DNA of 64,000 nucleotides from Proteromonas lacertae (GCA_002245135.1 NGBS01000318.1:1-64000), one strand, 5' to 3'. Counted from the first letter of the stretch, positions 8,640-34,151 are shown. Notes: a model not told the origin generated them from the sequence alone. Translations and numbers: made by a program.

Positions 8640-8759
8640 ATAATAATATATAGTAAGGGCTACAGACCATTAGGCTCGAATGCTGTGCCACCAAGCTAGA
8701 CCACGAGTAACGCATCTTTTTTTATAACTTGTTTGATCAAGCCTCAATTCTATTTTGCA
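8640..8759 (+). repeat. Left terminal inverted repeat (120 bp)
   Basis: ATAATAATATATAGTAAGGGCTACAGACC...TCTATTTTGCA is the exact reverse complement of 34032-34151. Confidence 0.97.
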
Positions 8760-8929
8760 AAGGTTTGACTTGAACAGTTGGTTTGTGTATCGAACTTCAA
8801 TTATATTTTGAATTTATTTAATTGGCTTGTCCGAATTAAAATTGAAGAAACGTTTCAGAATATTTGTGTTTCGACATTGTACAAAAATCGAAACGGCATT
8901 TTGGACAAATTTGAATTTTTGAATTTCGC

Positions 8930-8931
<2 letters not shown>
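8745..8931 (+). repeat. Internal imperfect inverted repeat, left arm (partner at 10202-10317)
   Basis: TTGACTTGAACAGTTGGTTTGTG...TTATTTAATTGGCTTGT and AATTTTTGAATTTCGCGC match the reverse complement of 10202-10317. This arm has about 70 extra bp (about 8831-8900). Confidence 0.88.

Positions 8932-8932
<1 letters not shown>

Positions 8933-8973
<41 letters not shown>
8933..8973 (+). repeat. Poly-T tract (41 nt)
   Basis: Direct count. Confidence 0.95.
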
Positions 8974-8974
<1 letters not shown>

Positions 8975-9194
8975 AATAAAAATATATCCGTTTCATTTCA
9001 AGCCACAGAATCAAGCCTATCGAGATCATCGGGATCGAGATCGAGAACGGTCGAGCTTTTTTTCAAACATTCAGTCCTTGCTTAGTTTAAAAGTCACGTT
9101 TTACATCAAACATTTTGATTTGAGTCAAAATTTACATCAATCGTAAAATTTGATTTCAAAAATTTTTAAAATTCAAAATCGTCAAAATCATCAA

Positions 9195-10102
9195 ATGAGT
9201 GCTCCAAAAATGAAAATTATATATGAAAATACAGACACCACTATGCTCCAAAATGCTATTAACAATATTGAAAGGTATAAGAGTGTGGATTATCAATATT
9301 ACAAATTCGATCCCAAAAAGAATTACTTACACCTCGATGAAAATGCTCTAATTGAGAAAATAAAAGATTCAGCAAAGAGTGGAAGTCATTATGAACAATG
9401 TTTAGCAATTACAAATTACATTCAGTGTTGGTACACAACAAACAATGGTAAAACATGGAAAGACTTACATCATGAGTTTATTTGTGAAGATTTGTTGAAT
9501 CACATTTGTAATAGTATAAATTTCAATTTAATTTAATAGGTACTGACATAATTAAATATGGAACAGATGAAGAATTTGGTGAACATGAATTAGGTAATGC
9601 AATAGTTATAAATGTAAATGAAAAAGATGAACCAATTGAAATTGAACAATCTGATTCAGAAATAGAAAGTGTTGTGTTTAAAACTTCATTTAGTAATACT
9701 GAACAAATTGTATTAGGCAAAATGAAAGGAGATAATTTAAATTATATTTCTAAATTTCATAAATTTAGAAATGAGTACAGTTATACTTATATAGATTTAA
9801 TCGAGCCTAAAAGAAAATTAATTAGTGTCCAAAATAGTATATGGAGTGCTCCTGAAAAGTTTGAACAAATAGATCATCGCATTGAAGAAAAAGATATTGT
9901 AGATGTAACTGATAGTGAAACTGATGAAGAAAATAGAGTACGTTCTTATCCAATAATGACAACAACTGGAAAAAGAAGAAGAATTTGTAAAATGAGAAGT
10001 CTAGATGAAATTCAATTGGCTAAGTCGATTGATAAATTGATCAGTATAACGATTAACAATGAATTGCGATTGGCTGATATGGAATTTCAAAATATTCATT
10101 AA
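9195..10102 (+). pseudogene. Viral hypothetical gene (about 300 aa) broken by a 5-bp AATTT duplication near 9525-9534
   Basis: Removing one AATTT from TTCAATTTAATTTAATAGG gives ...NFNLIGTDIIKYG..., continuous with ORF 9674-10102. Confidence 0.75.
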
Positions 10103-10201
10103 TTAATTAATTAAAAAACTATTTTATACACTTACAATTATTAATTACTAATTGGTTTGAATGTTTGTTTGAGTTTTGGGTGAACCATTTTTAAAAATAA
10201 A

Positions 10202-10317
10202 GCGCGAAATTCAAAAATTTAAATTTATCTAACAAGCCAATTAAATAATTTCAAAATAAAATTGAAATTTGATGCACAAACCAACTGTTCAAGTCAAGCC
10301 TTGTCAAAATAGATTTG
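10202..10317 (-). repeat. Internal imperfect inverted repeat, right arm
   Basis: Reverse-complement match to 8745-8830 plus 8901-8931. Confidence 0.88.
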
Positions 10318-10440
10318 AAAATTCAAATTTTTCGAATTTTCTAAAAATTTCTTAATATTCTATTTTTGACATAACGATTGAGAATTAAACTTCAATCGAT
10401 ATTGTTCGAAGTGAAGCGTCACGTATATATTATTTGAGGC

Positions 10441-10522: not shown

Positions 10523-10549
10523 AAAGTGTTTTATAATAAATGAAAAAAT

Positions 10550-10596
10550 AGTCGTTTTGCTTTCCCTAAATAAAGAGTCGTTTTGCTTTCCCTAAA
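10550..10596 (-). repeat. Two copies of a 21-bp subterminal motif AGTCGTTTTGCTTTCCCTAAA
   Basis: Copies at 10550 and 10576. The reverse complement (AGGGAAAGCAAAACGA) resembles the array at 33778-33867. Confidence 0.9.
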
Positions 10597-10642
10597 AAAT
10601 AACCGTTAATATAATAATAAAAATTAATTCGTTACAAATTAT

Positions 10643-10879
10643 TTAAACTGTGTGCTTTCTTTTGTTCACAATATCTATATATGTCTTGATATCTTCTAAT
10701 GTTTTATCATGCTGTAAGCCTTTCTCCATCATATCGGTCATATTTGAACGAATATCTGCGATATCTACTTCATTTGGAATACAATTGTGCGCTTTGAAGT
10801 ATTTGTACAGTGCCAGAGCGATCATATAGAGTATAAATACTAATACAGAGAGTAAAATTGTCATAATATCGTTCCCCAT
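10643..10879 (-). CDS. Viral small membrane protein (N-terminal TM helix, 78 aa)
   Basis: Hydrophobic IMTILLSVLVFILYMIALALY followed by a short charged helix. Confidence 0.65.
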   Translation of the reverse strand: MGNDIMTILLSVLVFILYMIALALYKYFKAHNCIPNEVDIADIRSNMTDMMEKGLQHDKTLEDIKTYIDIVNKRKHTV

Positions 10880-11593: not shown

Positions 11594-12562
11594 ATGTTAG
11601 TCTCTAATCATCGTGTATATTACTTAAATTCCGATATGGTAATGACTACAGGGACATTTGGAGTAGGGAATAGATACAAAAAGACCTTAGCTTTACCAAC
11701 ATTTGATCAAGATTATACTCATGTGTCATTATTACATGCAGTTGTCCCAAATTCTTTCCCTACTATACAAGCAGAGACAAACGATACGTTACAGTTCTTA
11801 TTTACTGTAGGTTACTATGATAATCTTTGGCCATTACCAACTTCTCCTACAGTAAGTGTTAAAGTTACCATTCCAGAAGGTTTTTATGATGAGAATCAGA
11901 TTTTAAAGTTATTCAATGATAAAATAAGAGAAATTAAATTTACAGATTTTGGAATAGAAACAAATGATGTAGTTCGTCCTTTTGATAAGATTGATGTACC
12001 TATAATAGAAGAAAAAGGAGATTTATTTGGAATAGATAACAATGGTAATAATCGAACAAATCATATAAAAGTAGCAAGTAATATGAATGTTATATATACT
12101 GATGGAAGTCCTTGGTTTTGGATAAAGAAGATTGAAATTATAACAAGTGACTTGAGTTACAAGTTATTAGGTATTCCTAAGAGTAATTATTGGTTATGTT
12201 TTGATAATTATGAACCGCCATATAATGGACATGGATCTGGAGCATATGTATTAATTCCAACACCATTTCCATTTGATCAATTACCATATCGTCCATCACT
12301 TATATGGGTTAATTCAATATCCATTCGTTTAGATATTGTAAACATCATTCAAGATTCAAATGTATTAGAAAATATACCAATAGCAAACCCTGAGTTACCA
12401 TTCATTACATATCAGAATAATGACATACTTAATACTAGCAAAATGTTTAATAATACTTATACCAATGGTCAAATTGCTATTCAGATTACTCAACAAAATG
12501 GTTATGAACTAAATCTTGATAATATCGAGTTTAATTTAGATATTGTTGTCTTTAAAGTCTAA
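11594..12562 (+). CDS. Minor capsid protein (penton, single jelly-roll) candidate
   Basis: YYLNS near the N-terminus, VSLLHAVVPNSF, VTIPEGFY and C-terminal IAIQITQQNGYELNLDNIEFNLDI are typical of Polinton/virophage pentons. It lies directly upstream of the major capsid gene. Confidence 0.8.
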   Translation: MLVSNHRVYYLNSDMVMTTGTFGVGNRYKKTLALPTFDQDYTHVSLLHAVVPNSFPTIQAETNDTLQFLFTVGYYDNLWPLPTSPTVSVKVTIPEGFYDENQILKLFNDKIREIKFTDFGIETNDVVRPFDKIDVPIIEEKGDLFGIDNNGNNRTNHIKVASNMNVIYTDGSPWFWIKKIEIITSDLSYKLLGIPKSNYWLCFDNYEPPYNGHGSGAYVLIPTPFPFDQLPYRPSLIWVNSISIRLDIVNIIQDSNVLENIPIANPELPFITYQNNDILNTSKMFNNTYTNGQIAIQITQQNGYELNLDNIEFNLDIVVFKV

Positions 12563-14105: not shown

Positions 14106-14954
14106 ATGAGTAAAATAAAACTAGAGAAATGTAATGACGTTGTTATAACACCAGTAGAATCAGTAGTCAAAGGTACTAAAAAGAGATCGAGAGATAATGT
14201 TCTAGGTTATGATTATTTTGAAGAGCCTTTTTGTAACATATTTATACTAGCTAAGAAGAACAGTGGAAAGACAACACTTATATTTAATATGATACAACAC
14301 TTGTTGAAGAAGAATTATGATCAAACAGTATATTTCTTTGTAGGAACAATTTCAAAGGATATTATTTATGAAAAGATCACTGATATGTTAAAGTACAATT
14401 TAATAGAATACCATTGTTACGATTCAATAGTAAATGAAGATAGAGTGAATGTATTAGAAGCAGTACTAGAAAACATTAAAGAAGTAGATAAAGAAAACTA
14501 TAATTACCCAGAGAACATATTCATATTCGATGATATATCATTCGATTTATCAAATAAGACCGTTTCAAAACTACTCAAATCAAACCGTCATTACAAGTCA
14601 AAAGTAATAATATCAAGTCAATATGTTACAGATTTAACACCATCCGTTCGTCTACAATTAGATTACTGTTTAGTATTTAGAAATCTAAGTTTAGCTAATC
14701 TACACAGTGTTCATAACAGTTTAGATTTGTGGGTAGATTTCAGTAAGTTTAGAGAATATTACAAGTATGCAACCAACTACAGTAATCATTCATTCCTCTA
14801 CATTGATATGTGCAATCATGAATTTCGTGTAAACTTCAATATGAAAATTAAAAATGATAATAACGGATATAAAAGTGATAATGATGATAATACCAGCATT
14901 AGTTCCTCCTCTTCTTCCTCTGATTCGTCCGATACTGATGATGATTCAGAATAA
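14106..14954 (+). CDS. A32-like (FtsK/HerA) genome-packaging ATPase
   Basis: Walker A AKKNSGKTT, Walker B IFIFDD, and the RHY and SSQY motifs of the A32 family. Confidence 0.92.
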   Translation: MSKIKLEKCNDVVITPVESVVKGTKKRSRDNVLGYDYFEEPFCNIFILAKKNSGKTTLIFNMIQHLLKKNYDQTVYFFVGTISKDIIYEKITDMLKYNLIEYHCYDSIVNEDRVNVLEAVLENIKEVDKENYNYPENIFIFDDISFDLSNKTVSKLLKSNRHYKSKVIISSQYVTDLTPSVRLQLDYCLVFRNLSLANLHSVHNSLDLWVDFSKFREYYKYATNYSNHSFLYIDMCNHEFRVNFNMKIKNDNNGYKSDNDDNTSISSSSSSSDSSDTDDDSE

Positions 14955-15003: not shown

Positions 15004-15870
15004 ATGTTTGGAGGTCCCTTAAAAAAACAAGCTGTTTCAATAGACACAGGTGCTATATCTAAGTCTATTACAACAATAACAAACAATTTAGGTAAAAAAA
15101 CTGATGATGATAAGACAATTAGAGAAATGTTGAAAGATATTGATGTAACAACTAACAATAATGCAGAGTCAGTTAAGAGTGTTGTTGATGTTATTGGTAA
15201 AACGAAATTAGAGTCATATGAAGATAGCATGTATGATTTATTAAGAAATATCGATGAAAAAATATCAAACGATCCAACAGCTAGCGCAATAAGTGATATA
15301 TCAACATATTTAGGTGATCCATTTACTATCAATGACTCTGTATGGAATTTTACACAGAAATTGTATAATGCATACAAAGGAGATGAAAATAATAGACTGT
15401 TAAAGAGAGTAGATGATAGATTATATATGTATTTAAATGCTGAAATTACTTCATTAACAAAATATATATATGCAAGATTTGAAGCATATCAAGATTACTT
15501 AAAAATAGATATATTAAATTATTATAAGATGAATACTAAATATGTTACTCCTGCGTTTTCAATTTCAACAAATGCAGAGAATCCTGTAATGGCAACTTTT
15601 ATTCAAAAGTTATTTGATAAATTAGATATTAGTTATGAACCAGATCCAGATAAAGACAATCAAGCATTTAGTGTTGATTTAGTATTTCAAACTAATAGTG
15701 GTAAGATTCAAACATTAGAAGTATTTCAATATCCTGGTTATACAGATTCGATTATTTTAGCACATAAAGGTGATATTCCAGCAGATTTTGAAACTAATTG
15801 TATGTTAGTGCCTCAATCAATACTACTACCCTTTAAAGATAAAATAACTGAATATGATGTAACGTATTAA
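15004..15870 (+). CDS. Viral hypothetical protein (helical N-half, possible spike or fibre)
   Basis: ATG at 15004 (MFGGPLKK). Repeated helical units with a C-terminal globular part. The function is a guess from position. Confidence 0.6.
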   Translation: MFGGPLKKQAVSIDTGAISKSITTITNNLGKKTDDDKTIREMLKDIDVTTNNNAESVKSVVDVIGKTKLESYEDSMYDLLRNIDEKISNDPTASAISDISTYLGDPFTINDSVWNFTQKLYNAYKGDENNRLLKRVDDRLYMYLNAEITSLTKYIYARFEAYQDYLKIDILNYYKMNTKYVTPAFSISTNAENPVMATFIQKLFDKLDISYEPDPDKDNQAFSVDLVFQTNSGKIQTLEVFQYPGYTDSIILAHKGDIPADFETNCMLVPQSILLPFKDKITEYDVTY

Positions 15871-15904: not shown

Positions 15905-16585
15905 TTACTTGGGTGGTTGTTGTTGAGTTGCTACTTGTGAACTTGAAACAAATGAATTATAACCAGTGCTATTGTTATTGTATGGTACTGTTGGTGTTTG
16001 AAATGCTAATGCGACAGATTGATTAACTACTGGTTGTTGTTGTTGTAGTTGTTGTACATCTGGTATTGCTGTTGTTGGAATAGGGATATTCTTGATAAGA
16101 ACAAATGTTGAATAAATTTCAAATTTTGGTAAAACAGTATAATGTGGTGAATTGTTCTCCATTGAAGTTAAAACCATACACTGTCTAATTCTTACTACGA
16201 ATTCGTTCCATTGAAGCAAGAATGGTTGAGGATCTGAAATGATATTCTTCCATGCTGTACACTTCAACATATTATTATCATTATCCTCAGGCATAACCAC
16301 ATTTAAACCAAACTGTTGATAAGAATTCTTAAAATTAGGATCTTGTGTAAATCTTACAGCAGATTCAACACATACTTTCTTTATCGGTTCTTTAACTTGA
16401 GTATTGAAGTCAGTGAACTCTTGATTGTTGAATAACAAGTATCTAGCTGGAGTGAAAGTGAGATAGTTGGCTTTTTTTGTATCTGCCTCAATTGCTCTCA
16501 ACATGAAGCCTCTAAATTTAACATACATATACTCTGATGGATAGAAACTAATGTAATTGACACCTTTGTCGATTTTTGATGACAT
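15905..16585 (-). CDS. Viral hypothetical protein, possibly PC4-like ssDNA-binding
   Basis: 226-aa ORF. YVKFRGF...KKANYLTFTPARY loosely resembles PC4. The tail is Q-rich. Confidence 0.55.
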   Translation of the reverse strand: MSSKIDKGVNYISFYPSEYMYVKFRGFMLRAIEADTKKANYLTFTPARYLLFNNQEFTDFNTQVKEPIKKVCVESAVRFTQDPNFKNSYQQFGLNVVMPEDNDNNMLKCTAWKNIISDPQPFLLQWNEFVVRIRQCMVLTSMENNSPHYTVLPKFEIYSTFVLIKNIPIPTTAIPDVQQLQQQQPVVNQSVALAFQTPTVPYNNNSTGYNSFVSSSQVATQQQPPK

Positions 16586-16735: not shown

Positions 16736-17161
16736 ATGGAATCAGATAGTATTTTTGTAATAGAACAGAGAGCTAAAAAACCTGTATATTTATTTATTAA
16801 AGAAATCAATGTTCTCAAAGCTTTTATTGGAACTATCTTAGGGTTAATTCAAACTGCAGCTCAAAACTATATCATTTGTAAGAATGAGGACATTACCAAA
16901 TTCAACAGTGTAGCTCAATTATTGATAGGACATATGAATAAGTATGCTTATAAGAATAGAAAACCAGTTCCAGAAACAATAGTAGAAGAAGCTCAGAATC
17001 TATTCGATTGGTTTGTAAAATTGCTTAAACAGTATGCAATTAACGCAGAGATGCCTCCTCCTAAGTATCATATCAACGAGTATGGATCAGTTATAAAAGT
17101 GTTGTTAGATGAATTAGATCTTTACACAAAAAACAAAGATAAGATAAGAGAAACCAAATAA
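16736..17161 (+). CDS. Viral hypothetical protein
   Basis: 141-aa ATG-initiated ORF in a tightly packed layout. Confidence 0.7.
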   Translation: MESDSIFVIEQRAKKPVYLFIKEINVLKAFIGTILGLIQTAAQNYIICKNEDITKFNSVAQLLIGHMNKYAYKNRKPVPETIVEEAQNLFDWFVKLLKQYAINAEMPPPKYHINEYGSVIKVLLDELDLYTKNKDKIRETK

Positions 17162-17165: not shown

Positions 17166-17720
17166 TTAAAAATCATTCACATATACTATATTTACTAATG
17201 AACTATAGAAATTGAAACATGTTTTTTCAAATTGGGTAAATAAGTATACTTTAAAATAAAGTTTCTGATTGGCTTCCAAGTGCCAATTATCTCTAAAGAA
17301 CTGATTGTACATAATTAATAGTCTTCTTATTGCACCTACTATTGTACTATAAGGAACTGATTGATTTTCTGTAAGATCTATTATTAAATCTATTTCATTA
17401 CATAATGAATCTACTTGATTTGCTGTTAAACTATTCAACGTTCTAAGACTTGGTTTGAATTTCGATAAAGATAACTTAAATAACTCTAAAGTATATTGTA
17501 TTTCTTCAATGGTAGCAATTACTCTAGGACCTTCAATACCTATTGGTAATCTATTCTCTGCATGACTTTCTAAAACATCTATAGGATCTTCATTTGAAGG
17601 AGGAGGTCTTTTATTCTCAGGATCATCTCTAATTATAAGTATTGGTGATTTAGGTTGAGGTGGAGGTGGTGGAGGTAAAGGTAATGGTATAGATTCTGTT
17701 TTTATGGGTATATTATTCAT
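17166..17720 (-). CDS. Viral hypothetical protein, Pro-rich N-terminus
   Basis: ORF convergent with 16736-17161. Confidence 0.7.
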   Translation of the reverse strand: MNNIPIKTESIPLPLPPPPPPQPKSPILIIRDDPENKRPPPSNEDPIDVLESHAENRLPIGIEGPRVIATIEEIQYTLELFKLSLSKFKPSLRTLNSLTANQVDSLCNEIDLIIDLTENQSVPYSTIVGAIRRLLIMYNQFFRDNWHLEANQKLYFKVYLFTQFEKTCFNFYSSLVNIVYVNDF

Positions 17721-17754: not shown

Positions 17755-18288
17755 TTAATTAGTTGAAAAATCACTTAACACTTCTTCCTCTTGATTATCA
17801 AAGGGATTGCTTCCGTTGGTTTGTTTGTTTGGCTTGATTAAATGCTTTCTTTTTTTAGGATTTAAACTGTCTAATGAATCTGATATAGCAGTCATAATCT
17901 TTCTTTTAGTTGTACATATCTCTGAGCTAGCATTTTGATTCAAAATGTCTTCTAAGTCTTCGTCATTTTCCCAATCACTTAAATCTGTTTCATCTTCTTC
18001 CATATTGTAATCTTCATCATCATCATCTTCACTATCTACAACAAAACCTTTCAAGTTTCCTTCACTATCAGCATCGGATGCATTAGCATCATCTTCTTCT
18101 TCATCCTCACTATCTGTACACTCTGCTTCTCCATATAAATAATTGTAGACGTCTTCTATCTCTCTCTTTCTCTTTTTAGCACATCTTTCTTTGTCATCTC
18201 GTTTCTGCTCCTCTTTTTGCTCCTTCTCAGCATCGCTAATATCATCGTCTATAATCTGAAGAATATGAATTGTTTTTGAGTTGCTCAT
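17755..18288 (-). CDS. Viral acidic disordered protein with NLS-like motifs
   Basis: D/E tracts plus KKRKR and PKKRK. Confidence 0.7.
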   Translation of the reverse strand: MSNSKTIHILQIIDDDISDAEKEQKEEQKRDDKERCAKKRKREIEDVYNYLYGEAECTDSEDEEEDDANASDADSEGNLKGFVVDSEDDDDEDYNMEEDETDLSDWENDEDLEDILNQNASSEICTTKRKIMTAISDSLDSLNPKKRKHLIKPNKQTNGSNPFDNQEEEVLSDFSTN

Positions 18289-24600: not shown

Positions 24601-25866
24601 AAAAATTATTTACATGGTGGTGTCACTCCTGATATGGTTGAAGTTGATAATGCTATGCAGTATGCTAACTGTATTATAATTACATGCATAGCATTTTGGT
24701 TATGGAAGAAAGGGAAGTTAGGAAATTTTGGATTCGTGACAGTGTTATGGTTCTACATATTTGATTACTATACTATAATACAAAAGATAACTGGTAATCG
24801 TTTACCTGACATAACTACCTTAGCGAATAACAATTATGATACAGTGAGTAAAATGTTACCTACAGCACTTCAAAATTCATGGTTACCTATGCAATTCATA
24901 TACAATTGTGGTACTTCATTCTTATTCAACTCACATCCTTATGTTAAAATATTAGCAAATGCTGCACCCTTCTTTTTCAAATTTGCAAAGTTCGGTAAGT
25001 TAGATACTAAGAATGGAATTACAGGAATGATAATGTCACTACTAAGTGGAGGTAAAACAAAAGGAATGAAAGGTTTCTTAGGTAAAGTAGGTACATGGGG
25101 AACAGTACTTAGTGCCTTCGGTGCTTGTGTTGGATTGATAGTACCTAGTGCATTATCTACATTTTTAAGTACAGGAACTGTTCCTCAGAACAATCCTGTA
25201 TTCGATCCTAACAATACACTCAATACTCCAAATGGTTTATCTAACTTCGTGAGTAGTGGATTACAACTTCAGGAAATATGGCAAATAATGAAAGCATTAG
25301 GTTATGCAGGTAAAGGTAAGAATAAACTATGTTCACGAAGGATACTTTTGTCTAACATCAATAGTAAAGATGCATTATCGAACTTTGATATTGAAGAAAT
25401 TATTCAAAAAGAATTCAATGATTTTGACAAGAAGTTCAAAGGTTGTTTCTGTTGGGATGAATTGGTACTTCCTATACCTCATAAAATGGATCAGTGGGGA
25501 ATCATAATCAATACACTGACTACAAAAGCAAAACCAGATAGTGTAGGTCATTGGGTAGCTTTAGTAGTAGATAACAAAAAGAAGATGTTCATGTACTATG
25601 ATTCTTTTGGTGAGGATCCTCAACACTTGAGTAATTTCAAAGAATGTTTGAAGAAGTTTAAGAAATTTCATGAAAAACCATATCAGTTAAAAATCAATGC
25701 AGTTCAGAACCAGAACAGTAATACAAACAATTGTGGTTTTTTCGCAATCAATTTTTTGAACGATATATTAAATAGAAAAAGAACATTCAAGCAGGCAACA
25801 GATTTTAATACAGTAGTTGGTGAGAAAAGAGTAGCAATGATGAAAAAAGAGTTTGGAATAGTATAA
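21619..25866 (+). CDS. 1415-aa polyprotein-like membrane protein with a C-terminal adenain-like (clan CE) cysteine protease
   Basis: C-terminal GIIINT...GHWVAL...YYDSFG...QNQNSNTNNCGFFAINFL (His-Asp-Gln-Cys). Several hydrophobic segments and internal GxG/GG motifs. Confidence 0.88.
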   Translation: MTAPTKRKHKEKESVDFDNPSIYHNALKRKLKKMIYDRASSNKKVKLDLSHMANPTRAVDKGNATNELEIYDPYTKNMVKTFGDDYDVTFDDNSKDKPMNPNLNATKNNYMTDEMKYKLYMSGITDQYGRYYRNIGQFNKPYSNYYGDPTNLTNIYQNPFGPPNPYQQLQQGLYQDPVTGQWSMSQWNNPAQYNTQSYINSQRWNNNSLDSNYEVKQQLQIKNAALEDAKKTIERMTEEQQKTLWHHINETFKGTTWWDWGTWGVKFLMCTLVLGGIDIAFKYVFPNQLGVLLSGIFNMGVRSSDYCAKLFGISQANVQYASFFGSWLPTTYQFIKAGWQGGVTGLMDFAVNQLRNVWNFTKNLFTGFFNSVKSVWSSITDGLPWSSGSTEDSGPTDVTKLFSSKYETPPSSVPLALPAPEAPQPITAPDKQLVVYGDSNATNTTGTLNGAGKKHVSFGPKYGGSSEANPVYNANMDGTNPPTAIAVGGYVHPYFLQESAQPPVEGYDMGYTWRHLGRGLDSIMGKGKLDKYRRHKHKHKLLKKLPRRHLCHNKRLLKKGGASLIPPGYVTEPPEPSASNNGVVNVGYYYPQGKNIQFWNGLRKLFNAADAAHVNQGQMYEPSSLNDYNLNMPQHPFNEVGWGDIGWGTIRSLDPKARTEFAAQLANDGAQQARQFKPKYYYDWDEFLHFQDKVYADHSSDPDYYLNKATWKYKPITIDPTNGASNFKYLGNPKYVNEQDFVTYDWGDNKVTDPLARFNPAFAKMNAEDIRAALNPGISSRLKDPFHLNKSDIEYQEKVGLQQEVLNNDYTIGLNNMYNNMKDNKLDKAYKWKAYSQQLGRRLRSDDEIKERADLNRLLSIDPALAEKAKQLHDIETCEIDENRRVIIPDEQAFIKDNIIQHENTPEKINHELNDKMLGHKVPVDWKDGDMQEKIKIGWELLKNACSQWKEFEGSQFQKALQSLNEGDFIEFGHNLYLCVKNIFRIFPIIFYTFKNYLHGGVTPDMVEVDNAMQYANCIIITCIAFWLWKKGKLGNFGFVTVLWFYIFDYYTIIQKITGNRLPDITTLANNNYDTVSKMLPTALQNSWLPMQFIYNCGTSFLFNSHPYVKILANAAPFFFKFAKFGKLDTKNGITGMIMSLLSGGKTKGMKGFLGKVGTWGTVLSAFGACVGLIVPSALSTFLSTGTVPQNNPVFDPNNTLNTPNGLSNFVSSGLQLQEIWQIMKALGYAGKGKNKLCSRRILLSNINSKDALSNFDIEEIIQKEFNDFDKKFKGCFCWDELVLPIPHKMDQWGIIINTLTTKAKPDSVGHWVALVVDNKKKMFMYYDSFGEDPQHLSNFKECLKKFKKFHEKPYQLKINAVQNQNSNTNNCGFFAINFLNDILNRKRTFKQATDFNTVVGEKRVAMMKKEFGIV

Positions 25867-25883
25867 AGAAATTAATTAATTAA

Positions 25884-26234
25884 TTAATTTTTACTTTCTA
25901 ATTCTGTTGTTTTCTTAATTTCTTCTTCATGTTGTTTCAAAATATTGTGTAGAACAGGAACTAACTCTTCTATTGCTTTATCTAACTCTTCTTTAAGACA
26001 CTGTACAGATAATCTCTTACTCTCTAAACGATTCATTAATTCAAACACTTGTTCATCCATACCTAAATTGTATGCTTCATTGAGCTTCTTACAAGTTACT
26101 ATTATATTACCTGCTTTCTTTAATGCATTCTTATACTCCAAGCTACCATCATCTTTATGATTGATGTAAGTGCTGCACAACTCGTACCACATATCAAATG
26201 CTGCCTCTGCATTTTCTTTTAACATCATATCCAT
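25884..26234 (-). CDS. Viral hypothetical helical protein
   Basis: 116-aa ATG-initiated ORF. Confidence 0.65.
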   Translation of the reverse strand: MDMMLKENAEAAFDMWYELCSTYINHKDDGSLEYKNALKKAGNIIVTCKKLNEAYNLGMDEQVFELMNRLESKRLSVQCLKEELDKAIEELVPVLHNILKQHEEEIKKTTELESKN

Positions 26235-26335
26235 CGTTATTTGATACCTATATAAACGAAAAATAAAAGAAATACCGAATATAGCCGTTTCACGATCTTT
26301 AGCATTTTTTCGTTACACGAATTTTTTGAGAATTC

Positions 26336-26737
26336 ATGAAGTTAGGTTACAGTATCAAAGGCCAGAATTTATTTATATTTGAAAAGCGAGCCAATGATCA
26401 AAGATGGACTATTTTCATCCCAGCTGAAGCCAAGAAATACATATGGGGTAAATCAAATCATCATACACCATTAGTAATCAACTATGGAGCTGCATTAAAA
26501 GACAAATACAATTCAACTACTCCTACAATAAAAACCCTTTGGTTGCCAGATTTTTATGAGATCGATGTTCCATCAAATGTCAAACCTGTTATTGTATCTT
26601 CTATAGATAAGCAGTTTCTACATTTCAATATTTTATACATAGGAAGAGGTCAAACAAAACCAACACCACCCAAAAAACAAGAAGAAGAAGATGTTGGTGT
26701 AGAAAGTTTATTAGAACAACTTAAAATATCTAATTAA
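26336..26737 (+). CDS. Viral hypothetical protein
   Basis: 133-aa ORF whose stop abuts the integrase stop. Confidence 0.65.
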   Translation: MKLGYSIKGQNLFIFEKRANDQRWTIFIPAEAKKYIWGKSNHHTPLVINYGAALKDKYNSTTPTIKTLWLPDFYEIDVPSNVKPVIVSSIDKQFLHFNILYIGRGQTKPTPPKKQEEEDVGVESLLEQLKISN

Positions 26738-28030
26738 TTATACAATTGTATCATCACCTTTTTTGATTCTGGGTCTTTCAAGAATACGTCTAAAATGAGT
26801 TTCAGGATCTCTTCTAGCAACTAATTGTAACTCATAATGTTTGAATCTATATCTAGATACATCAGGATCCCAATTACCGTTTATATCTCCTAATACATAA
26901 GAGTACCTGTTTTTATGTCTAATACGATATATCTTATCTGACCAATAAGTTCCTTTATCCATTTTTCTTCTTTGTTCATGAAACCTAACTAAATCTCCAA
27001 CTTGAAATTTTGTTTTTAATCTTTGTTCATTATTGAAATTGTATTTAACTGATTCCATTAACATTCTGTTTTGTAGTTTAGGACTATTGTATACTTCGTT
27101 AGGTGTATAATCTCTCAAACTTGATAAAGGTTTGTTATTATAATCATAAACAGTTTCTTGTACAATTTGATTGAAACGTGACAACCATCTCTGATCAATG
27201 ATTTCTCTTCTATCGTTTCTATCTATATTAGCTTGAAACTCTGGTGCATCTATACCTAAATCTATTAAATGTTTATATAATAATTTCTTTACAAGACTTA
27301 CAGATCTTTCCAATACCATTTCTATTCTATGTTCTGATGGCATCTTTTGAAAGAATGTAATTCCTTCTTGATCTAATAATGGTTTGATTGCATTGAAACT
27401 ATTTTGCATATCACACAAGACACTTACTACACGTCTTTTAGATACTACTTGAGAACCATCTTCATTTGTTTTAAAATACCATGCTCTAAAAGCACTTTCA
27501 ATACTTGGTCCTTTTTCATCACGTAATGGGATTGCCCATACTTTTCTGGAATTCATTTCTATCAAATATAAGTAAGGATGATAAGGTAAAAAGTAAACAA
27601 CATCCATTTGGAAGTATCCAGGCTTCTTGATACTTGCAAAAGGTAAATCTTGATTGTATTTAAAATCTACTATTTGACGACCAGGCTTTCTTCTTAGATA
27701 CTCTCTAACTACATCATAAGGTGGTGGAACATCATTAAGTTCTGCTGCTTCTTGTGTTAGTTTAATAAATTGTTTTTCACTTAAATAGTAATACTTATCA
27801 TAAAGTCTATCTAGATATTCTCTATATTCATCGATCTGTCTGGATATTTCATCATTTTCATATGGATTTGGTCTTGGATTATTCTGTATTGACGGTGGTG
27901 CATTGTTAAAATTCCTCGCATAATTTTGCTCATCTCTTGAGTCAACATGTCTATAGCCTGGTGGCAACTCTTGAGCTGTATCTGGATTTGGGTAAGAGTA
28001 AGACTTATTATAAAAATAATTAGCAAGCAT
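26738..28030 (-). CDS. Retroviral-type (rve, DDE) integrase of Polinton type
   Basis: FQMD, SRKVWAIPL, VLCD, LERS, YNNKP..L...TP, KFQVGDLVR, WSDKIYRI and YELQ. Confidence 0.9.
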   Translation of the reverse strand: MLANYFYNKSYSYPNPDTAQELPPGYRHVDSRDEQNYARNFNNAPPSIQNNPRPNPYENDEISRQIDEYREYLDRLYDKYYYLSEKQFIKLTQEAAELNDVPPPYDVVREYLRRKPGRQIVDFKYNQDLPFASIKKPGYFQMDVVYFLPYHPYLYLIEMNSRKVWAIPLRDEKGPSIESAFRAWYFKTNEDGSQVVSKRRVVSVLCDMQNSFNAIKPLLDQEGITFFQKMPSEHRIEMVLERSVSLVKKLLYKHLIDLGIDAPEFQANIDRNDRREIIDQRWLSRFNQIVQETVYDYNNKPLSSLRDYTPNEVYNSPKLQNRMLMESVKYNFNNEQRLKTKFQVGDLVRFHEQRRKMDKGTYWSDKIYRIRHKNRYSYVLGDINGNWDPDVSRYRFKHYELQLVARRDPETHFRRILERPRIKKGDDTIV

Positions 28031-28089
28031 AAGAAGTAAAACACAAAAGTAAAAGCATACACTAATATATTAAATATATCCATGTTATT

Positions 28090-31000
28090 CTAATTAAAGA
28101 CATTATTATAATTATCGTACATATTTCTAGCAGCTTCACTTTCATTTGGATCACGATTCAATAAGTATGGAACTGAGCTGATTCTAGTTAAATAACATCT
28201 TTTAATATCAAATATTGTAAATGCTAATTTAGGTACACGAACTGTATACAATACTTGTTTTGCACTTCTGAAACTGTACTGATCTACATATACTTTTTGT
28301 AAATCTCTACTATCTAAAATATTAGTGTAATAATCATAATCACATGTCTTTACTCTATAACCTTTAGATACACCTTTTGCTCTTGAATCAGATTTAAACA
28401 AGTGTATAGGTCCATCCACTCTCTGTTTTTCATAAGCATACATCTTTGCTTTCAATCCACAGAATCTTGTTATTGTGTATAACTGATCACTTTTGTTCTC
28501 TTCCATTTTAAGTAAGTTAAGTTCACCTGTTCTTTGATAGTTTTGATATCTGATACCTCTTTGCTTTAGATAATCACAATTAATATTACCAGTATCCATA
28601 CAACCTTGAATTGTTAAATCATCAGCAATATCTCTGTAAAAGTCTTTTGTAGCAACTCTGAAGATAAAAGAATCTGTATCTGTCATCAGTAAAGTAAGAC
28701 CATCTCTATATTTTCTGTATAATTGTCCATACCAAAACTTTGCCATTAAATACTTTGATTGACAGAGAATAGCCATTCCAATATAGCTTGGTTTATCAAT
28801 TGCACATTTATACTTCTTAAACTTACACACTCTTAAGTCACATCCATCAATTGATACAAAACCTGTAAAGTATGGATTACTTGTACACTTTAAGAACTGT
28901 TCTTCACTATTCACCAACTTACTTCTACATCTATTCTCTGTATTTTCACATGTCTTACCATATGCACTGTTAAGGATTAGTTTAAACGTATCTGCTTCAG
29001 CATCTCTATGTGCTGACTTTGCAGCCTTCCTTAATAGATGACACTGCATCACGAAATCATAAGCATAAGCTGTTTCACAAAAACTAATCACTCTCCATAC
29101 TTTGTTTACTTTATAACCTAACTTCACAGCATAGTTCAGATATTGATAATGAACAACATAGTGATACTTCCTACTCAAATCGCATATTATTCTTGGAGTG
29201 TTATTCTTCAATTCTCCATTCTTATCCACCATACCTAATTCTATAGCCCATTGCTTCTGTTCTTGTGACAAGTCTCTAAAGTATATCATCTTTCTCTCAG
29301 GGAATAAAGGATACTCTGAAAATCCACAACGATCTGGTGGATCTATATCAACTTCTAATATATAACCTCTACTCTCTGGATCTTTCCACAACTTCTGATC
29401 TTCTGGATTTGATGAATGCATTATATCTTCATAAGGTTTCATTTTCTTAATGACATCTATATAGATTTCTGGTTTCTCCCATCTGAAATCTTTATATGGT
29501 AACTTCATTGATGCCATTGTAGAAGGATACAGAGAATTATAATCCACATACATAATATAGGATTCTCTTTTTGGTGGGATTGCATGAAGATCTTCAAAGA
29601 ATGGTGGATCCATATAATGGTTCTTGGCTTCAGCCTTTCTCATTGATCCAATCATTGAAATACCTCCAATCAATCCTTTTCGAATGAAATCATACTTGTC
29701 TTGATCAGCTAACAATTCAATCTTTACATTACACCTTCTAAGAAATATAGACCATGCTAAACCTGGACAACTAACATGCCAACATGGATCTAATATAAAA
29801 TGCTTAAACACTACATTTCTGAAATGGTCAAACACACTTGTAAGAGTTAATACATCCATTGCTAAATAGAATAAGTTATACTCCATTAGATCATTCATCT
29901 CCAATAACTTCCATAATGCTTGACAGGAATCATAAATATCTTGTGGTATTTCTTCTTCCTGTTTCAATTTAGACTTGAATGCTTCTCTTGGTGGTAACTC
30001 TTTTGTATTGTATAACTTATCTATATGATCAACATATTCGTAAGGGAAGTGACCTTTCTGCAATCCCCATTTCATCATGAAATCATTGACTGTCCAATCA
30101 TGGTCTTTTAAACACTTTTGTATCTTTGTATCTTCTCTTACATACTGGTATACAGGATGGAATAACTTTTCATATTCACCACCTGATTCAGCTTCTATCT
30201 TTAAGGATTGAACTATACTATCTAGTGATGAAGACATAAACTGAAAGCTATCAATGAAGTGTAGTTTGTTAAACTTTATCATTAAGAACTTATTGTCAGT
30301 CTTTAATAGAACTGATAACTTTGATCTATACTTTCTTTTATTATTATTCATTGGCTGAGTTGTTATTGGTTGAGATGTAACTATGTTTCCCATTTCTTCT
30401 TCTAAACCAAGATCTTCAGCTGTTCTAGGTGATAAGTATTCTTCTCTACTATGTAACATATAATATAACTCATTAAATGCTTCTTCATTGTTGGGATCGT
30501 TTTCATCTACTATTTCAATTGTATTTGGTGGTTCTATTGGTAATGGTATTTCTTCTTCATCTTCATAATCTTCTTGAGTTGATATATCTACTAATCTATC
30601 TTCTTCTTCTTCCTCTTCTTGTTTCTTTTCTTCTTCAATACCTCTATTATATTCAGTTAATCTTTCATCAACAGTTGTTGTAGTATCTGGTATTGGTATT
30701 GATGGTTGTGGTGGTTGTTGTATTGGTTGTTGTTGTTGTAATGATACATTCCACTCTGCTTCCATTTCTTTATCTAATTTTGATAATCCACGGATAATGA
30801 AGTTATTATCATAGTTCTTACTATTGTGTGCAATACAAGGTATTTGCAGATGTTGTAAAGAACAATGCCAATTACAGTTACTACATAATGTAGCAAGATA
30901 TTTTCCAGTAAAATGGTCATGGTGTCTTGTGCGTCTTTTATTTTTATCATTTTCATCAAATGGAGTGTTACACCACATACACTTTGTTATTTTTCTATGA

Positions 31001-32946
31001 ATTGGTATATATGTACTTTCATCCAAAGGCTTTAACTCTCCACTCTTATATTCTTCATATTTCGATAATACATACTCTTCTATTTCTACAAACTTTCTGA
31101 CCAATTCCATTTCCAAGTCTTCAGGATCTTGTTGTGGACCAAGTTTACCAAAGAAAGTTTCTTCACTGATAATATCTGGATATCTTGAACTTATATGTAT
31201 GCACCAACTACTTAACACATGTCTACTAAATGCACCTTTTGCACCAGGTATTGCTTGTGAAGGATCTATTGGTACTTGTATTACTTCTGTATCCCAATAT
31301 AAGACCACTGGAATCATTTGCATGAATTTGAAGTTATGGAATTCCAAGAAAGTATCAGGTGGTGGGAATTGACGAATGACTCCTCTCTGTAATTGACAAC
31401 TGGTTGAATTATGTAGTTTGAATGCTTGATCTGTTGATAAGGTACAAAAGCAGTATGGACATCTAGTGTAGTAATTATGACAACGCTTATTGTATGGTGC
31501 AAGGAAGGCTTCTAACTTTGTTATTGTCATGAAGTGTTCTTTATAAAACAGTATGTTGACATGTGGGTAGTGTAGCATCTTATCTATTGAAGTTCCATAC
31601 AATGGTATTGGTTCTTTATCCACAATTGTAAATATATTGATAGTGACATGATTCATTTGTTCAAACACTTCTATTCTACCACTATCAGTGATAGGATCAA
31701 TAGGAAACTTCAAACATGTTATATCCATTCTATAAACATACTCCTTATACTTCATAGCTCTATTTCTATGATCCTTAAACTCCATATGATGTAATCCTGC
31801 TGCAACACTATATATAAAACACATACTTTCAGCTTCCTTACTATAATTGGTTAAGTTGATTAAACACTTTCTTCTTACTAAACTTTCAGGTAATAATATA
31901 CTGACATTGTCTGTAGCTGATCCAGTACTTAATGATGTTCTCATCATAATCATTTCCACTAGAGCTATATGTTTATACTTCAAATCACTTCTTTCTGTAT
32001 TGAATATATTATTGAAATCTCTTCCCATTATTCTATTCAATTTTTGGCCAACACTTCCTAATTCACTTACAGTAACTGACTCTGGATTAGTCTCATAGGT
32101 TTTGTAACATAATGGATCAGTTCCTTCAATATCTATAACATTGGATCCAACATATGCAACTCTGATTCTGAATTGAACTTTGGCATGTTCAAAATGAGTT
32201 GTATTGAAATAGTTTCTCAATGCTTTCATATACTCTGATCTAGGATCTGTAACTTGTAACCATATAGCTTCATACTCTCTACATAATGGATCATCACTCC
32301 AATCATGAGAATAAGTTTCTTCATACCTTTCACTTGAACCATGAACAACATCTAAAACATATCTACGAAGATCAAATGGCATTTCTTTTAATCTTTCAGG
32401 ATGATTCTCAACAACATCTAAAGCTAACATTGCTTCTCTTCTAACTCTTTGATCTTCTTCACTAACAGGAGCATCTGGATGTGTTTCTTGTGGTGGTGGT
32501 GGTTGATCATCGTCTACAAGTGGAGATAGTGTTGGAGTAATCTCTTCAGGAGGAGTATCTGGTAATTGACTATCTGGTATCTCAGTTATTCTTTGTATCT
32601 TTGGTGGTGGTTCTTCAATTACAACTGATGAACTCGTTCTCTGATTAACTGGTGTAACATAACCTGGTTGAGCTGTAGTTGTTGAAGATGTTTGAGGTGG
32701 TGGTGGTGGTGCTGAACCTGTTGAAGGTGGAGGCATGATCCCTCCTGCTCCTCCATATACTGGATAAGGTGGTGGATAATACATTGGTGGAGGTGTTGGA
32801 GGAACATAATAAGGTTGGAACCAAGGATTGAAATAATTAAGAGGCATCATGGGTGGGTTACCTGGAGCTGTACCTTGTTGTGGCTGTTGTGAACTTGGTT
32901 GATTATAACCATACGGATTATAACCATAAGGATATCCTGGATACAT
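28090..32946 (-). CDS. polB: Protein-primed family B DNA polymerase with a terminal-protein region, vOTU-like, C2H2 and EndoVII/HNH-like domains
   Basis: Exonuclease motifs YWDTE, HNSKNYD and YLAMD. Polymerase motifs YVDYNSLYP, KLILNSAYGK, TDTDS and KMY. Also CFIYSV...HF (OTU-like), CPYC...H...C and CMWC...HHDHFTGKY...CSNCN. Confidence 0.96.
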   Translation of the reverse strand: MYPGYPYGYNPYGYNQPSSQQPQQGTAPGNPPMMPLNYFNPWFQPYYVPPTPPPMYYPPPYPVYGGAGGIMPPPSTGSAPPPPPQTSSTTTAQPGYVTPVNQRTSSSVVIEEPPPKIQRITEIPDSQLPDTPPEEITPTLSPLVDDDQPPPPQETHPDAPVSEEDQRVRREAMLALDVVENHPERLKEMPFDLRRYVLDVVHGSSERYEETYSHDWSDDPLCREYEAIWLQVTDPRSEYMKALRNYFNTTHFEHAKVQFRIRVAYVGSNVIDIEGTDPLCYKTYETNPESVTVSELGSVGQKLNRIMGRDFNNIFNTERSDLKYKHIALVEMIMMRTSLSTGSATDNVSILLPESLVRRKCLINLTNYSKEAESMCFIYSVAAGLHHMEFKDHRNRAMKYKEYVYRMDITCLKFPIDPITDSGRIEVFEQMNHVTINIFTIVDKEPIPLYGTSIDKMLHYPHVNILFYKEHFMTITKLEAFLAPYNKRCHNYYTRCPYCFCTLSTDQAFKLHNSTSCQLQRGVIRQFPPPDTFLEFHNFKFMQMIPVVLYWDTEVIQVPIDPSQAIPGAKGAFSRHVLSSWCIHISSRYPDIISEETFFGKLGPQQDPEDLEMELVRKFVEIEEYVLSKYEEYKSGELKPLDESTYIPIHRKITKCMWCNTPFDENDKNKRRTRHHDHFTGKYLATLCSNCNWHCSLQHLQIPCIAHNSKNYDNNFIIRGLSKLDKEMEAEWNVSLQQQQPIQQPPQPSIPIPDTTTTVDERLTEYNRGIEEEKKQEEEEEEDRLVDISTQEDYEDEEEIPLPIEPPNTIEIVDENDPNNEEAFNELYYMLHSREEYLSPRTAEDLGLEEEMGNIVTSQPITTQPMNNNKRKYRSKLSVLLKTDNKFLMIKFNKLHFIDSFQFMSSSLDSIVQSLKIEAESGGEYEKLFHPVYQYVREDTKIQKCLKDHDWTVNDFMMKWGLQKGHFPYEYVDHIDKLYNTKELPPREAFKSKLKQEEEIPQDIYDSCQALWKLLEMNDLMEYNLFYLAMDVLTLTSVFDHFRNVVFKHFILDPCWHVSCPGLAWSIFLRRCNVKIELLADQDKYDFIRKGLIGGISMIGSMRKAEAKNHYMDPPFFEDLHAIPPKRESYIMYVDYNSLYPSTMASMKLPYKDFRWEKPEIYIDVIKKMKPYEDIMHSSNPEDQKLWKDPESRGYILEVDIDPPDRCGFSEYPLFPERKMIYFRDLSQEQKQWAIELGMVDKNGELKNNTPRIICDLSRKYHYVVHYQYLNYAVKLGYKVNKVWRVISFCETAYAYDFVMQCHLLRKAAKSAHRDAEADTFKLILNSAYGKTCENTENRCRSKLVNSEEQFLKCTSNPYFTGFVSIDGCDLRVCKFKKYKCAIDKPSYIGMAILCQSKYLMAKFWYGQLYRKYRDGLTLLMTDTDSFIFRVATKDFYRDIADDLTIQGCMDTGNINCDYLKQRGIRYQNYQRTGELNLLKMEENKSDQLYTITRFCGLKAKMYAYEKQRVDGPIHLFKSDSRAKGVSKGYRVKTCDYDYYTNILDSRDLQKVYVDQYSFRSAKQVLYTVRVPKLAFTIFDIKRCYLTRISSVPYLLNRDPNESEAARNMYDNYNNVFN

Positions 32947-33142
32947 AATATAACCTAAAAATTCTTAGAACTAGAAGTTAATAAGATATATACTTGATTA
33001 TTGGCTACGACGTTTAGCCATCCAATAATATTGTTAATTCAAATGCTAGTTTGATTTGAGCAACTCCCCAATAAGAAAAAAGAAGTTTCAAAAATATATT
33101 CGTTTTAATTCCATTTCGTTACAAAATCTTAAAATCGTCAAA

Positions 33143-33721
33143 ATGCGTCAATCAGTTTATCAATATGATTTAGATCAAGTGTACAACCATACTACTGTAT
33201 GGCTAAAATGTTTGGAAGACATATCGACCAAGATTCAAAAAGATGATATTCATTTTGTAAGTTTATTGAAAATAGGTGTAGCACAAGATCTCTCAGACTA
33301 CAATCTAATTTTATTTAAAGCTTTTATAGAAGACTGTGCAGAAAAGATAAAAGATCTAATCCGAGAGTTAGGAGTCGTCGTTAGATATAGAGATGAGTTA
33401 CAAACGTATACCAAAAGATTACTAGTACTCAATAAGCTTTGTTGGATACGTGATCGTATTAGAATGTGGTGGGGTATATTAAAAATGCATGCTCAAAATT
33501 GGATTATGGAACAGCTTCAAAATTTAGGTGAGGATTTAATTAGAAAGGATCAAGAGATTATCGAAGAAGTAATTCATTGGCAATACATGTGTGAGCATCC
33601 AGAGGAAGCAGCCAAAGAAAAAGTATTGAAAGATATGATGGAAAAGAGATATAAGGTTCAACCAGGGATTGTGGATCCAAGAGTTAGAAGGATGCTGAAT
33701 CTACCTGATGATTTAGAATAA
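33143..33721 (+). CDS. Viral hypothetical helical protein
   Basis: ATG at 33143 (MRQSVY), divergent from polB. Confidence 0.7.
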   Translation: MRQSVYQYDLDQVYNHTTVWLKCLEDISTKIQKDDIHFVSLLKIGVAQDLSDYNLILFKAFIEDCAEKIKDLIRELGVVVRYRDELQTYTKRLLVLNKLCWIRDRIRMWWGILKMHAQNWIMEQLQNLGEDLIRKDQEIIEEVIHWQYMCEHPEEAAKEKVLKDMMEKRYKVQPGIVDPRVRRMLNLPDDLE

Positions 33722-33777
33722 ATTAAATGCTTAATCATAATATCTTATACTATGATATGAATTGGTGTTTATTATAT

Positions 33778-33867
33778 AGGGAAAGCTAAATCGATTACAA
33801 ATTAAGGGAAAGCAAAAACGATTATTAAGGGAAAGCTAAAACGATTATTAAGGGAAAGCTAAAACGA
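33778..33867 (+). repeat. Subterminal tandem array, four copies of AGGGAAAGC(T/A)AAA(A/T)CGA
   Basis: Units start at 33778, 33805, 33828 and 33851. Confidence 0.92.
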
Positions 33868-34031
33868 GTGTAGGTGGGTATAAGTGCAAGAATGAGTGTA
33901 ATTGCGAAAATGTGTAACGGTTGGCCGTCGGTTATTTCTGAGTAGTGTAACCGACGCGTAACCGAAAGTGTAACCGTTTGCAACCGTTAGAATTCCGTTA
34001 TGTCCAACCGTTATTGAATAAATTAAGATTA

Positions 34032-34151
34032 TGCAAAATAGAATTGAGGCTTGATCAAACAAGTTATAAAAAAAGATGCGTTACTCGTGGTCTAGCTTGG
34101 TGGCACAGCATTCGAGCCTAATGGTCTGTAGCCCTTACTATATATTATTAT
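34032..34151 (-). repeat. Right terminal inverted repeat (120 bp)
   Basis: Exact reverse complement of 8640-8759. Confidence 0.97.

Follow-up and report, generated by a model that had tools for sequence, protein, structure and literature searches.

What kind of virus has settled in the 64,000-nt stretch of DNA NGBS01000318.1:1-64000 (GCA_002245135.1; hereafter the window, which contains no N), and how would it build its particle? Our analyses show that positions 8640-34151 (25,512 nt) hold an intact Polinton-type provirus and that its protease is the C-terminal part of a 1415-residue protein (the 1415-aa protein). We put at roughly 60% the probability that the whole mechanism proposed below is right, namely that of an intact Polinton provirus whose protease-fused 1415-aa protein is cut, as predicted, into virion parts. 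The interest of the element lies in this conserved fusion, in introns of host type and in an unplaced capsid; the adenovirus-like framing of a preliminary description, made from the sequence alone, fails.

The boundaries of the element are sharp. At its two ends, 120 nt are repeated exactly in inverted orientation (terminal inverted repeats, TIRs; zero differences), and the 6-mer AAATTA, for which the chance at a given place is ~0.002 under the composition of the flanks, lies directly outside both ends as a target-site duplication (TSD); both features had been announced in the preliminary description and are borne out. Formally, the element could also be read as shorter, with a duplication of 3 bp, but the 6-bp version is more parsimonious. 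The (ATA)3 ends recall in form those of vertebrate Mavericks, which PMC8097293 describes as (AGT)2. The absence of differences over 120 nt bounds TIR divergence at ~2.5% and, together with the intact TSD, the unbroken genes and a GC content that has not ameliorated (31.1% in the element versus 23.8% and 25.8% in the flanks), fits a recent insertion. An assembly artefact, or a contaminant contig joined to host DNA, is hardly credible: a 41-nt T run in the region of the left cassette arm (8933-8973, see below) may hold a length error from sequencing, but exact TIRs and a 6-bp duplication at both junctions, unbroken long open reading frames (ORFs), host-type introns, a host-type 3' motif and related genes in independent run assemblies all argue against such an origin.

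The gene content of the element, the penton aside, is that of the Polintons/Mavericks (Polintoviricetes), as had been proposed: a protein-primed DNA polymerase B (pPolB) of the Alpha (PF03175) group with a Cys/His pair at the position of the vOTU domain, an RVE-type integrase, an A32-type ATPase, a Ulp1-type protease and a major capsid protein (MCP) with a predicted double-jelly-roll (DJR) fold, enclosed by TIRs with trinucleotide-repeat ends and a 6-bp TSD. We counted 22 genes, two likely introns being joined, and one possible overlapping 90-aa ORF, with 89% of the element covered. The preliminary description had about 23 genes, roughly half of them without a family; the share without one is nearer three quarters, since five of the 22 have a tested family (six with the penton candidate). 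The pPolB, integrase, ATPase and capsid ORFs are unbroken, as claimed, and so is that of the penton candidate; the protease, listed with them, is not a separate ORF but the tail of the ORF for the 1415-aa protein.

The pPolB keeps exonuclease motifs I-III and polymerase motifs A-C. Its Cys376/His471 pair lies in conserved columns at the position where PMC11161782 places the vOTU domain, and we infer that this region is such a domain. Among 2515 candidates, 24 relatives were found at E <= 1e-20, three of them 39-55% and 21 of them 25-32% identical; in a midpoint-rooted FastTree tree of all 25 rows, which contains no named references, the three closest relatives and the enzyme of the window fall on one side of a branch with SH-like support of 100. 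A Pro/Tyr/Gln-rich N-terminal extension and a ~140-residue acidic insertion in the exonuclease domain are both common to a single relative (P0006). Scans with the pPolB alignment retrieved 3 viral loci and 386 metagenomic ones; the viral loci and the best 80 metagenomic ones, 83 loci at 27-38% identity with 2469 ORFs in all, form the comparison set for the MCP, integrase, ATPase, protease and penton. Neither integrase nor ATPase has a direct Pfam family match (the ATPase none to Pox_A32). The rve+chromo integrase of locus L037 and that of the element share 26% identity in 269 columns (E 5e-12), the latter having Asp143, Asp207 and Glu241 as its DDE residues; the ATPase matches, at E 2e-5, that of locus L022, which itself passes Pfam Pox_A32. 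Sequence searches of the PDB gave nothing useful for the MCP, integrase, ATPase or basic protein 2, and a pattern scan of IMG/VR gave no relative of the ATPase.

The protease occupies the last ~183 residues of the 1415-aa protein, behind an N-terminal part of ~1230 residues. It matches the Pfam family Ulp1 C48 (PF02902) at E 8e-7, above the cut-off, and adenain C5 at E 0.0013, below it; its top PDB matches are SENP1 (E 5e-5), and the catalytic residues His1311, Asp1328, Gln1365 and Cys1372 are all present. Among 4726 candidates of 778-2477 residues, a range outside which shorter unfused forms would fall, one relative was found (P0076, 1354 aa). It aligns with the 1415-aa protein from end to end (43% identity over 100% of the query), the identity being 74-77% in the N-terminal 200 residues, ~70% in the protease and 23-51% between them; a pattern scan of IMG/VR returned no relative. 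In the 83 pPolB loci a strict protease pattern caught one ORF, a stand-alone one of 143 aa (L037), and vertebrate Mavericks are described with a separate protease gene (PMC8097293). A literature search covering titles and the starts of abstracts found no description of a Polinton protease fused to a large precursor. If a protease is indeed carried in cis on such a precursor, this maturation scheme would differ from that of Mavericks, virophages and adenoviruses, in which the protease stands alone.

Gly-Gly is the sequence after which Ulp1-clan proteases cut, and several features of the 1415-aa protein suggest that it may be their substrate as well as their carrier. GG pairs at residues 341, 560 and 1000 are kept in P0076 (three of the four alignable sites, three more falling in gaps; chance 0.3 per site) where the surrounding identity is 30-50%, and a GxG-basic motif stands directly before the protease domain in both proteins. 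The motif G(x)G-basic-basic occurs 8 times in ten late-block frames versus 1.9 in shuffles and never in the other 14 frames; P0076 has it 3 times versus 0.3. Along the protein, blocks of acidic, of very basic (residues 527-561, pI 11.5) and of hydrophobic character alternate between GG/GxG sites, and predicted cuts at these sites would yield blocks of ~342, 184, 35 (pI 11.5), 440, 231 (hydrophobic) and 183 residues. Given the fusion, we consider it roughly an even bet that the 1415-aa protein is a polyprotein cut at Gly-Gly or Gly-x-Gly into internal virion parts. The core polyproteins pp220 and pp62 of African swine fever virus, structural precursors cut at Gly-Gly-X by a SUMO-protease-like enzyme, provide a working model by analogy, with the difference that their protease is a separate protein whereas here it is fused in cis.

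Four points weigh against this interpretation: a single relative cluster supports the fusion; three kept GG pairs out of four are too few to decide; the G(x)G-basic-basic motif was picked after the sequences had been seen, and P0076 is a homologue; and plain GG and GxG counts in the 1415-aa protein do not exceed shuffles (7 versus 7.5 and 6 versus 7.1), nor do they in the core proteins. Per-protein GG enrichment was rejected, the counts being those expected from shuffling. This lack of enrichment would also suit a single scaffold, tape-measure or membrane-associated virion protein that carries the protease and undergoes at most one cut to free it, with no polyprotein involved. Two hydrophobic segments and several helical stretches fit one elongated structural protein of this kind, and the legend of Fig. 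6 in PMC8502044 assigns tape-measure-like genes to some MELD viruses. We nevertheless find a single protein doubtful, because blocks of such different character alternate between the candidate sites, three GG pairs have been kept amid strong divergence and the same G(x)G-basic motif recurs in the separate core proteins.

The polyprotein interpretation presupposes a particle, for which the MCP is the principal witness. A predicted structure based on six sequences contains two beta-barrels, or jelly rolls, and DJR capsids dominate its fold matches, so that the capsid claim of the preliminary description survives the check on its fold. The top Foldseek matches are iridovirus, Sputnik and PBCV-1 capsids (E 3e-8 to 7e-8). 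In a VIA search, 11 of the top 12 rows were DJR capsid or scaffold proteins (Z 6.9-11.2, root-mean-square deviation (rmsd) 6-8.6 A, 228-346 residues), led by PBCV-1 (Z 11.2, rmsd 6.7, 306 aligned) and including faustovirus (10.3), mavirus (8.6) and, at rank 7, the adenovirus hexon (7.8). Among the best 50 rows in BFVD, which include entries named MELD virus (one at rank 3) and a first hexon at rank 48, no capsid exceeds 13% identity. A DJR fold is thus supported by the model, but no one capsid family within it is: the low confidence of the model (pLDDT, the predicted local distance difference test, 54.8), itself a point against our reading, means that ranks among DJR families say little, and a family missing from these fold matches is not thereby excluded.

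The sequence of the MCP places the lineage no better. As regards the Polintoviricetes capsid groups Maverick 1/2 and Gossevirus, it has no Pfam match to PF21738, whereas the Maverick-type MCP of locus L002 scores 3e-47; a profile hidden Markov model of the six sequences matches none of the 2469 ORFs of the comparison set, and pattern scans of IMG/VR, JGI metagenomes and GTDB found no relative. Since the five related clusters (among 2455 candidates, 45-68% identical) all come from unannotated run assemblies in Logan, the lineage appears unplaced by its capsid, whose divergence shows that a lineage has slipped past the standard profiles. The 322-aa neighbour of the MCP is probably the penton, judging by its position and by a short pattern shared with one of the 2469 locus ORFs, the penton-like ORF of L001; this pattern was chosen after looking, pairwise comparisons were not significant and, also to be counted against our reading, the single-sequence model (pLDDT 30.6) leaves the fold without support.

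The virion module had been called unusually adenovirus-like. A hexon, pVI, pVII and adenain joined to a Polinton replicon would account for two small, very basic Gly-rich proteins, one of which has a GG pair followed by an amphipathic stretch, in a layout resembling that of pVII and pVI as given in PMC8156859, and for the sub-threshold C5 match of the protease. Protein-primed replication, a cysteine protease of the same clan and small basic core proteins bearing Gly-rich candidate cleavage sites are traits that the element has in common with adenoviruses. None of the tests supported such a module. At 482 aa the MCP is about half as long as a hexon (>900 residues according to PMC8156859) and closer in fold to the capsids of nucleocytoplasmic large DNA viruses (NCLDV) and virophages, among them mavirus, than to the hexon, which ranks below them. 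The ATPase is not IVa2 but of the A32 type, the one that adenovirids lack (PMC11161782), and the protease is nearer Ulp1/SENP than adenain. An integrase is present and no separate terminal protein was recognised. Basic proteins 1 and 2 (16% Gly) match no adenovirus family in Pfam at E 10, their shortness and low complexity limiting the power of the search, and a PDB search with the 104-aa protein gave no match to adenoviruses; pVI, pVII and pX thus find no sequence match here. The amphipathic stretch of basic protein 2 lies at the 94th percentile of the windows of the element, outside the top 25 of 269. An adenovirus-like module is therefore very improbable and already largely refuted. By analogy of composition, the two basic proteins are likely core proteins all the same; according to PMC8502044, adintoviruses have basic pX-like and membrane-active accessory proteins and some MELD viruses a pVI-like gene.

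In what nucleus would these genes be read? The flanks carry genes for Mo25, SNAP, an IP5 kinase, a kinesin, Piezo and kinases in the standard code, and the Mo25 gene has introns of 28, 28, 33 and 37 nt; these compact flanks of 24-26% GC uphold the AT-rich protist host proposed earlier. A scan of the flanks for introns of 24-45 nt starting with GTA gave 50 candidates, 44 of them starting with GTAT, and 39 GTAT..TAG joins versus a decoy mean of 6. Two introns of the same form join co-oriented frames in the element, the second parts having 69 and 121 open codons before their first Met; a frame-keeping intron is thus present at 2 of the 12 co-oriented junctions versus 0.13 expected (the sum of composition-matched decoy fractions). 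The intron at 20884-20919 ends in TAGTAG, where use of the nearer AG leaves an in-frame stop (~180 aa) and splicing to the farther one joins on a Lys/Glu-rich part, for 389 aa in all; alternative splicing is possible. A third candidate (28310-28353, starting with GTAA) falls within the open frame of pPolB and was discarded as a false positive. A 28-nt GTAT..TAG stretch at ~26248-26275 on the minus strand, upstream of a 116-aa gene, looks like an intron of a 5' untranslated region.

Downstream of the genes, TGTTT occurs within 80 nt after 17 of 22 stops versus 8.0 in shuffles and 6 in antisense; exact TGTTTGTT follows 3 of 22 stops versus 0.3, and 12 of 22 versus 4.7 when up to one mismatch is allowed. 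Such a GU-rich element, 11-70 nt after stops, would mark 3' processing. The corresponding test in the host (TGTTT 13 of 28 versus 6.3; the 8-mer with one mismatch 4 of 28 versus 3.1) was not relied on because the ends of frames are often not the ends of genes. Short introns of host type together with the downstream element point to nuclear, host-adapted expression; the introns also suggest that the lineage has long been resident in such hosts, young as this copy looks. There are precedents for introns in such elements, introner insertions being reported from dinoflagellate Polinton-like proviruses (PMC11957031), whereas intact vertebrate Mavericks are described as intronless (PMC8097293). The main protist surveys assumed that elements of this sort have no introns and called genes in the prokaryotic manner (PMC10120064), a procedure that would split some of the genes found here.

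Human Blastocystis has 30-nt introns and a downstream element of TGTTGTT type (PMC12129017), and the host is probably an AT-rich, Blastocystis-like stramenopile. Three observations count against this assignment or against the introns behind it: the AT-rich isolates (21-23% GC) in the same source have longer, variable introns and no enrichment of the downstream element; the host reading relies on GC content, intron form and motif, not on a tree; and the intron count over the whole element, 2, is not above that of decoys (0-4, mean 0.75, 16 decoy signal pairs). Rumen ciliates were also weighed as host, the available part of PMC13685798 giving no intron sizes for them. CpG-containing motifs (AAAATCGTCAAAAT; TTCGTTAC; GCGCGAAATT at 9175-9188, 33131-33144; 26309, 33115, 10628; 16672) are shared upstream of several non-structural genes and are candidate early promoter elements; the observed/expected ratio of CpG is 1.28 in the first 2 kb versus 0.14 inside pPolB.

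These expression signals also bear on another reading, in which the element would be a virophage of the mavirus kind, dependent on a giant virus in the same cell and expressed in the cytoplasmic factory of that virus. Mavirus-type and rumen virophages (Virophaviricetes) share pPolB, protease, ATPase and DJR MCP with the element, and the core gene set of mavirus, RVE integrase included, is the same (PMC4409740, where rumen virophages are described without an integrase). Virophages with pPolB do exist in animal guts, and Sputnik and mavirus MCPs tie with NCLDV MCPs among the fold matches of our low-confidence model. However, spliceosomal introns and a downstream element of host type imply nuclear expression by RNA polymerase II; the MCP has no virophage-specific similarity and no sequence match to IMG/VR contigs; the capsids of PBCV-1, faustovirus and iridovirus have scores at least as good; and no helicase or primase was recognised in the element. 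A virophage is accordingly improbable.

We thus return to a Polinton provirus that is likely able to excise, to copy itself in the nucleus and to package its DNA into DJR particles. In the mechanism that we propose, the RVE integrase would have inserted a linear genome, leaving the 6-bp duplication, and at the (ATA)n ends the terminal-protein domain of pPolB itself would serve as primer for replication. The genes would be transcribed by host RNA polymerase II and the two short introns removed by the host spliceosome. A late block on one strand, with penton candidate, MCP and ATPase followed by the two very basic proteins and the 1415-aa protein, would build the particle. Being part of the precursor would keep the C-terminal Ulp1-type domain inactive or supply it in stoichiometric amounts; the virion might then mature as this domain cleaves the precursor and the basic core proteins, either after Gly-Gly or at Gly-x-Gly. 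The broader proposal of an autonomous, nucleus-replicating Polinton lineage of gut protists, with a core derived from a self-cleaving 1,415-aa polyprotein and with host-type introns and 3' signals, is tentative, the odds being somewhat against it. If true, it would offer a culturable, intact candidate both for the missing Polinton virion, not observed as of 2021 according to PMC8097293, and for the larger virus-like particles of Blastocystis. Virus-like particles of 30 nm and larger are reported in that genus with no link to a sequence, and what is known of its DNA viruses comes only from old micrographs and a single mention in a data-mining study (PMC12835684). An intact copy bounded by TIRs and TSD in a probably culturable protist would permit a direct test of virion formation.

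How new is the lineage? From the Polintons/Mavericks it differs in an MCP that misses PF21738, in a protease fused to a 1230-residue N-terminal part, in ends of (ATA)n and not (AGT)2 or (AG)3, in an integrase with no chromodomain, in its two likely introns and in its size of 25.5 kb. The epithet adintovirus-like must be given up, adintovirus being the name for animal-tropic Polintons and the flanks here being those of a protist; Pfam gave no match to PLA2X, gasdermin-X or cupiennin-like accessory genes. The element had also been called large for its group, which is true relative to intact vertebrate Mavericks (12.7-24.6 kb; PMC8097293) and not relative to MELD viruses, whose range of 10-50 kb (PMC8502044) includes it. 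As to an undescribed lineage, no near-identical described element was found and the capsid is unplaced, but section 3.4 of PMC8502044 already refers to a Blastocystis virus of similar content (Alpha-like PolB, integrase and virion proteins that sequence does not identify), which lowers the novelty if our guess of the host is right. The Blastocystis and rumen MELD viruses of that source resemble the element in these three traits, in a PolB on a long branch and in a likely similar host; its available text reports no insertion bounded by TIRs and TSD, no protease fusion and no introns. Capsid outliers, likewise unplaced, are noted in a 2026 framework for Polinton-like viruses (PLV; 10.64898/2026.06.19.733378). 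The accessible portions of PMC10120064 and 10.64898/2026.10.13.758929 make no mention of Blastocystis, and in 10.1101/2024.03.23.586382 no gene flux was found between the gut giant viruses studied there and Blastocystis.

Table. The element and its edges, feature by feature, in coordinates of the window.
Coordinates	Strand	Feature	Remarks
8634-8639		Left TSD AAATTA	Directly outside left end
8640-8759	+	Left TIR, 120 nt	Starts with (ATA)3 trinucleotide repeat
8744-10318		1.57-kb cassette bounded by imperfect inverted repeats	8744-8830/10232-10318, 90%; 8895-8940/10193-10238, 85%
9195-10102	+	Family-less gene in cassette, likely spliced, 293 aa	26-nt GTAT..TAG intron 9514-9539 (32-nt alternative from 9508)
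10547-10602	-	Two inverted copies of subterminal GGGAAAGC(T/A)AA repeat	
10643-10879	-	78-aa protein	One predicted N-terminal membrane segment
10911-11579	-	222-aa basic protein	No family
11594-12562	+	Minor capsid (penton) candidate, 322 aa	Adjoins MCP; weak match, E 0.07, to penton-like ORF of L001
12593-14041	+	MCP, 482 aa	Double jelly-roll by predicted structure (AlphaFold + Foldseek)
14106-14954	+	A32/FtsK-type packaging ATPase, 282 aa	Walker A/B, RH and SQ motifs; similarity to L022 ATPase
15004-15870	+	288-aa protein	No family; starts MFGG (start inferred; longer frame from 14854)
15905-16585	-	Family-less gene	
16736-17161	+	Family-less gene	
17166-17720	-	Family-less gene	
17755-18288	-	Family-less gene	
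18340-18702	-	Family-less gene	
18763-19233	+	Basic Gly-rich protein 1, 156 aa, pI 11.2	No family; likely DNA-condensing core protein
19292-19606	+	Basic Gly-rich protein 2, 104 aa, pI 12.0	Arg/His runs after GG and GxG; moderately amphipathic stretch
19696-20298	+	200-aa charged low-complexity protein	
20344-21549	+	Likely spliced gene, 389 aa	36-nt GTAT..TAG intron 20884-20919
21619-25866	+	1415-aa protein, candidate polyprotein	C-terminal Ulp1-type cysteine protease (~25315-25866)
25884-26234	-	Family-less gene	
26336-26737	+	Family-less gene	
26738-28030	-	RVE-type DDE integrase, 430 aa	Without chromodomain
28090-32946	-	pPolB, 1618 aa	Pfam PF03175, E 2.7e-21
33143-33721	+	192-aa helical protein	No family
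33769-33867	+	Four subterminal GGGAAAGC(T/A)AA repeats	
34032-34151	-	Right TIR, 120 nt	
34152-34157		Right TSD AAATTA	Directly outside right end

At the left end, the subterminal repeats lie farther inward than at the right end, by roughly the length of the cassette, which is therefore likely an insertion at the inner border of the left TIR. The TIR and the left arm of the cassette have 16 nt in common, and no clear duplication belonging to the cassette was seen; it may be a nested mobile cassette or a template-switch duplication.

Two kinase-like frames, arranged head to head, flank the element as a whole, which sits in the loop formed by an imperfect palindrome (8600-8639/34152-34191); the minimum free energy of the palindrome is -10.4 kcal/mol (z -3.6), a stability equalled in 0 of 1031 host windows. 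A palindrome-loop target may reflect a site preference of the integrase. Host repeats surround the kinase-like frames (8319-8589/52654-52922, 80%; 6500-6603/34550-34655, 92%; 34484-34583/56768-56860, 73% identical), one of which seems to have truncated the kinase on the right side of the element. A host ORF at 50745-52355 on the minus strand, with weak matches to NTPase, RHS and STAND-type P-loop proteins, adjoins a copy of the repeat found 5' of the kinase. Rfam and ARAGORN scans gave no RNA or tRNA match inside the element, and the host flank carries a tRNA-Glu (CTC) at 57990-58064 (+). Finally, a 90-aa frame at 27811-28083 on the minus strand, hydrophobic at its N-terminus, shares its DNA in another frame with the low-complexity beginning of the integrase and may be a real small membrane protein, like the product of the 78-aa gene near the left end.

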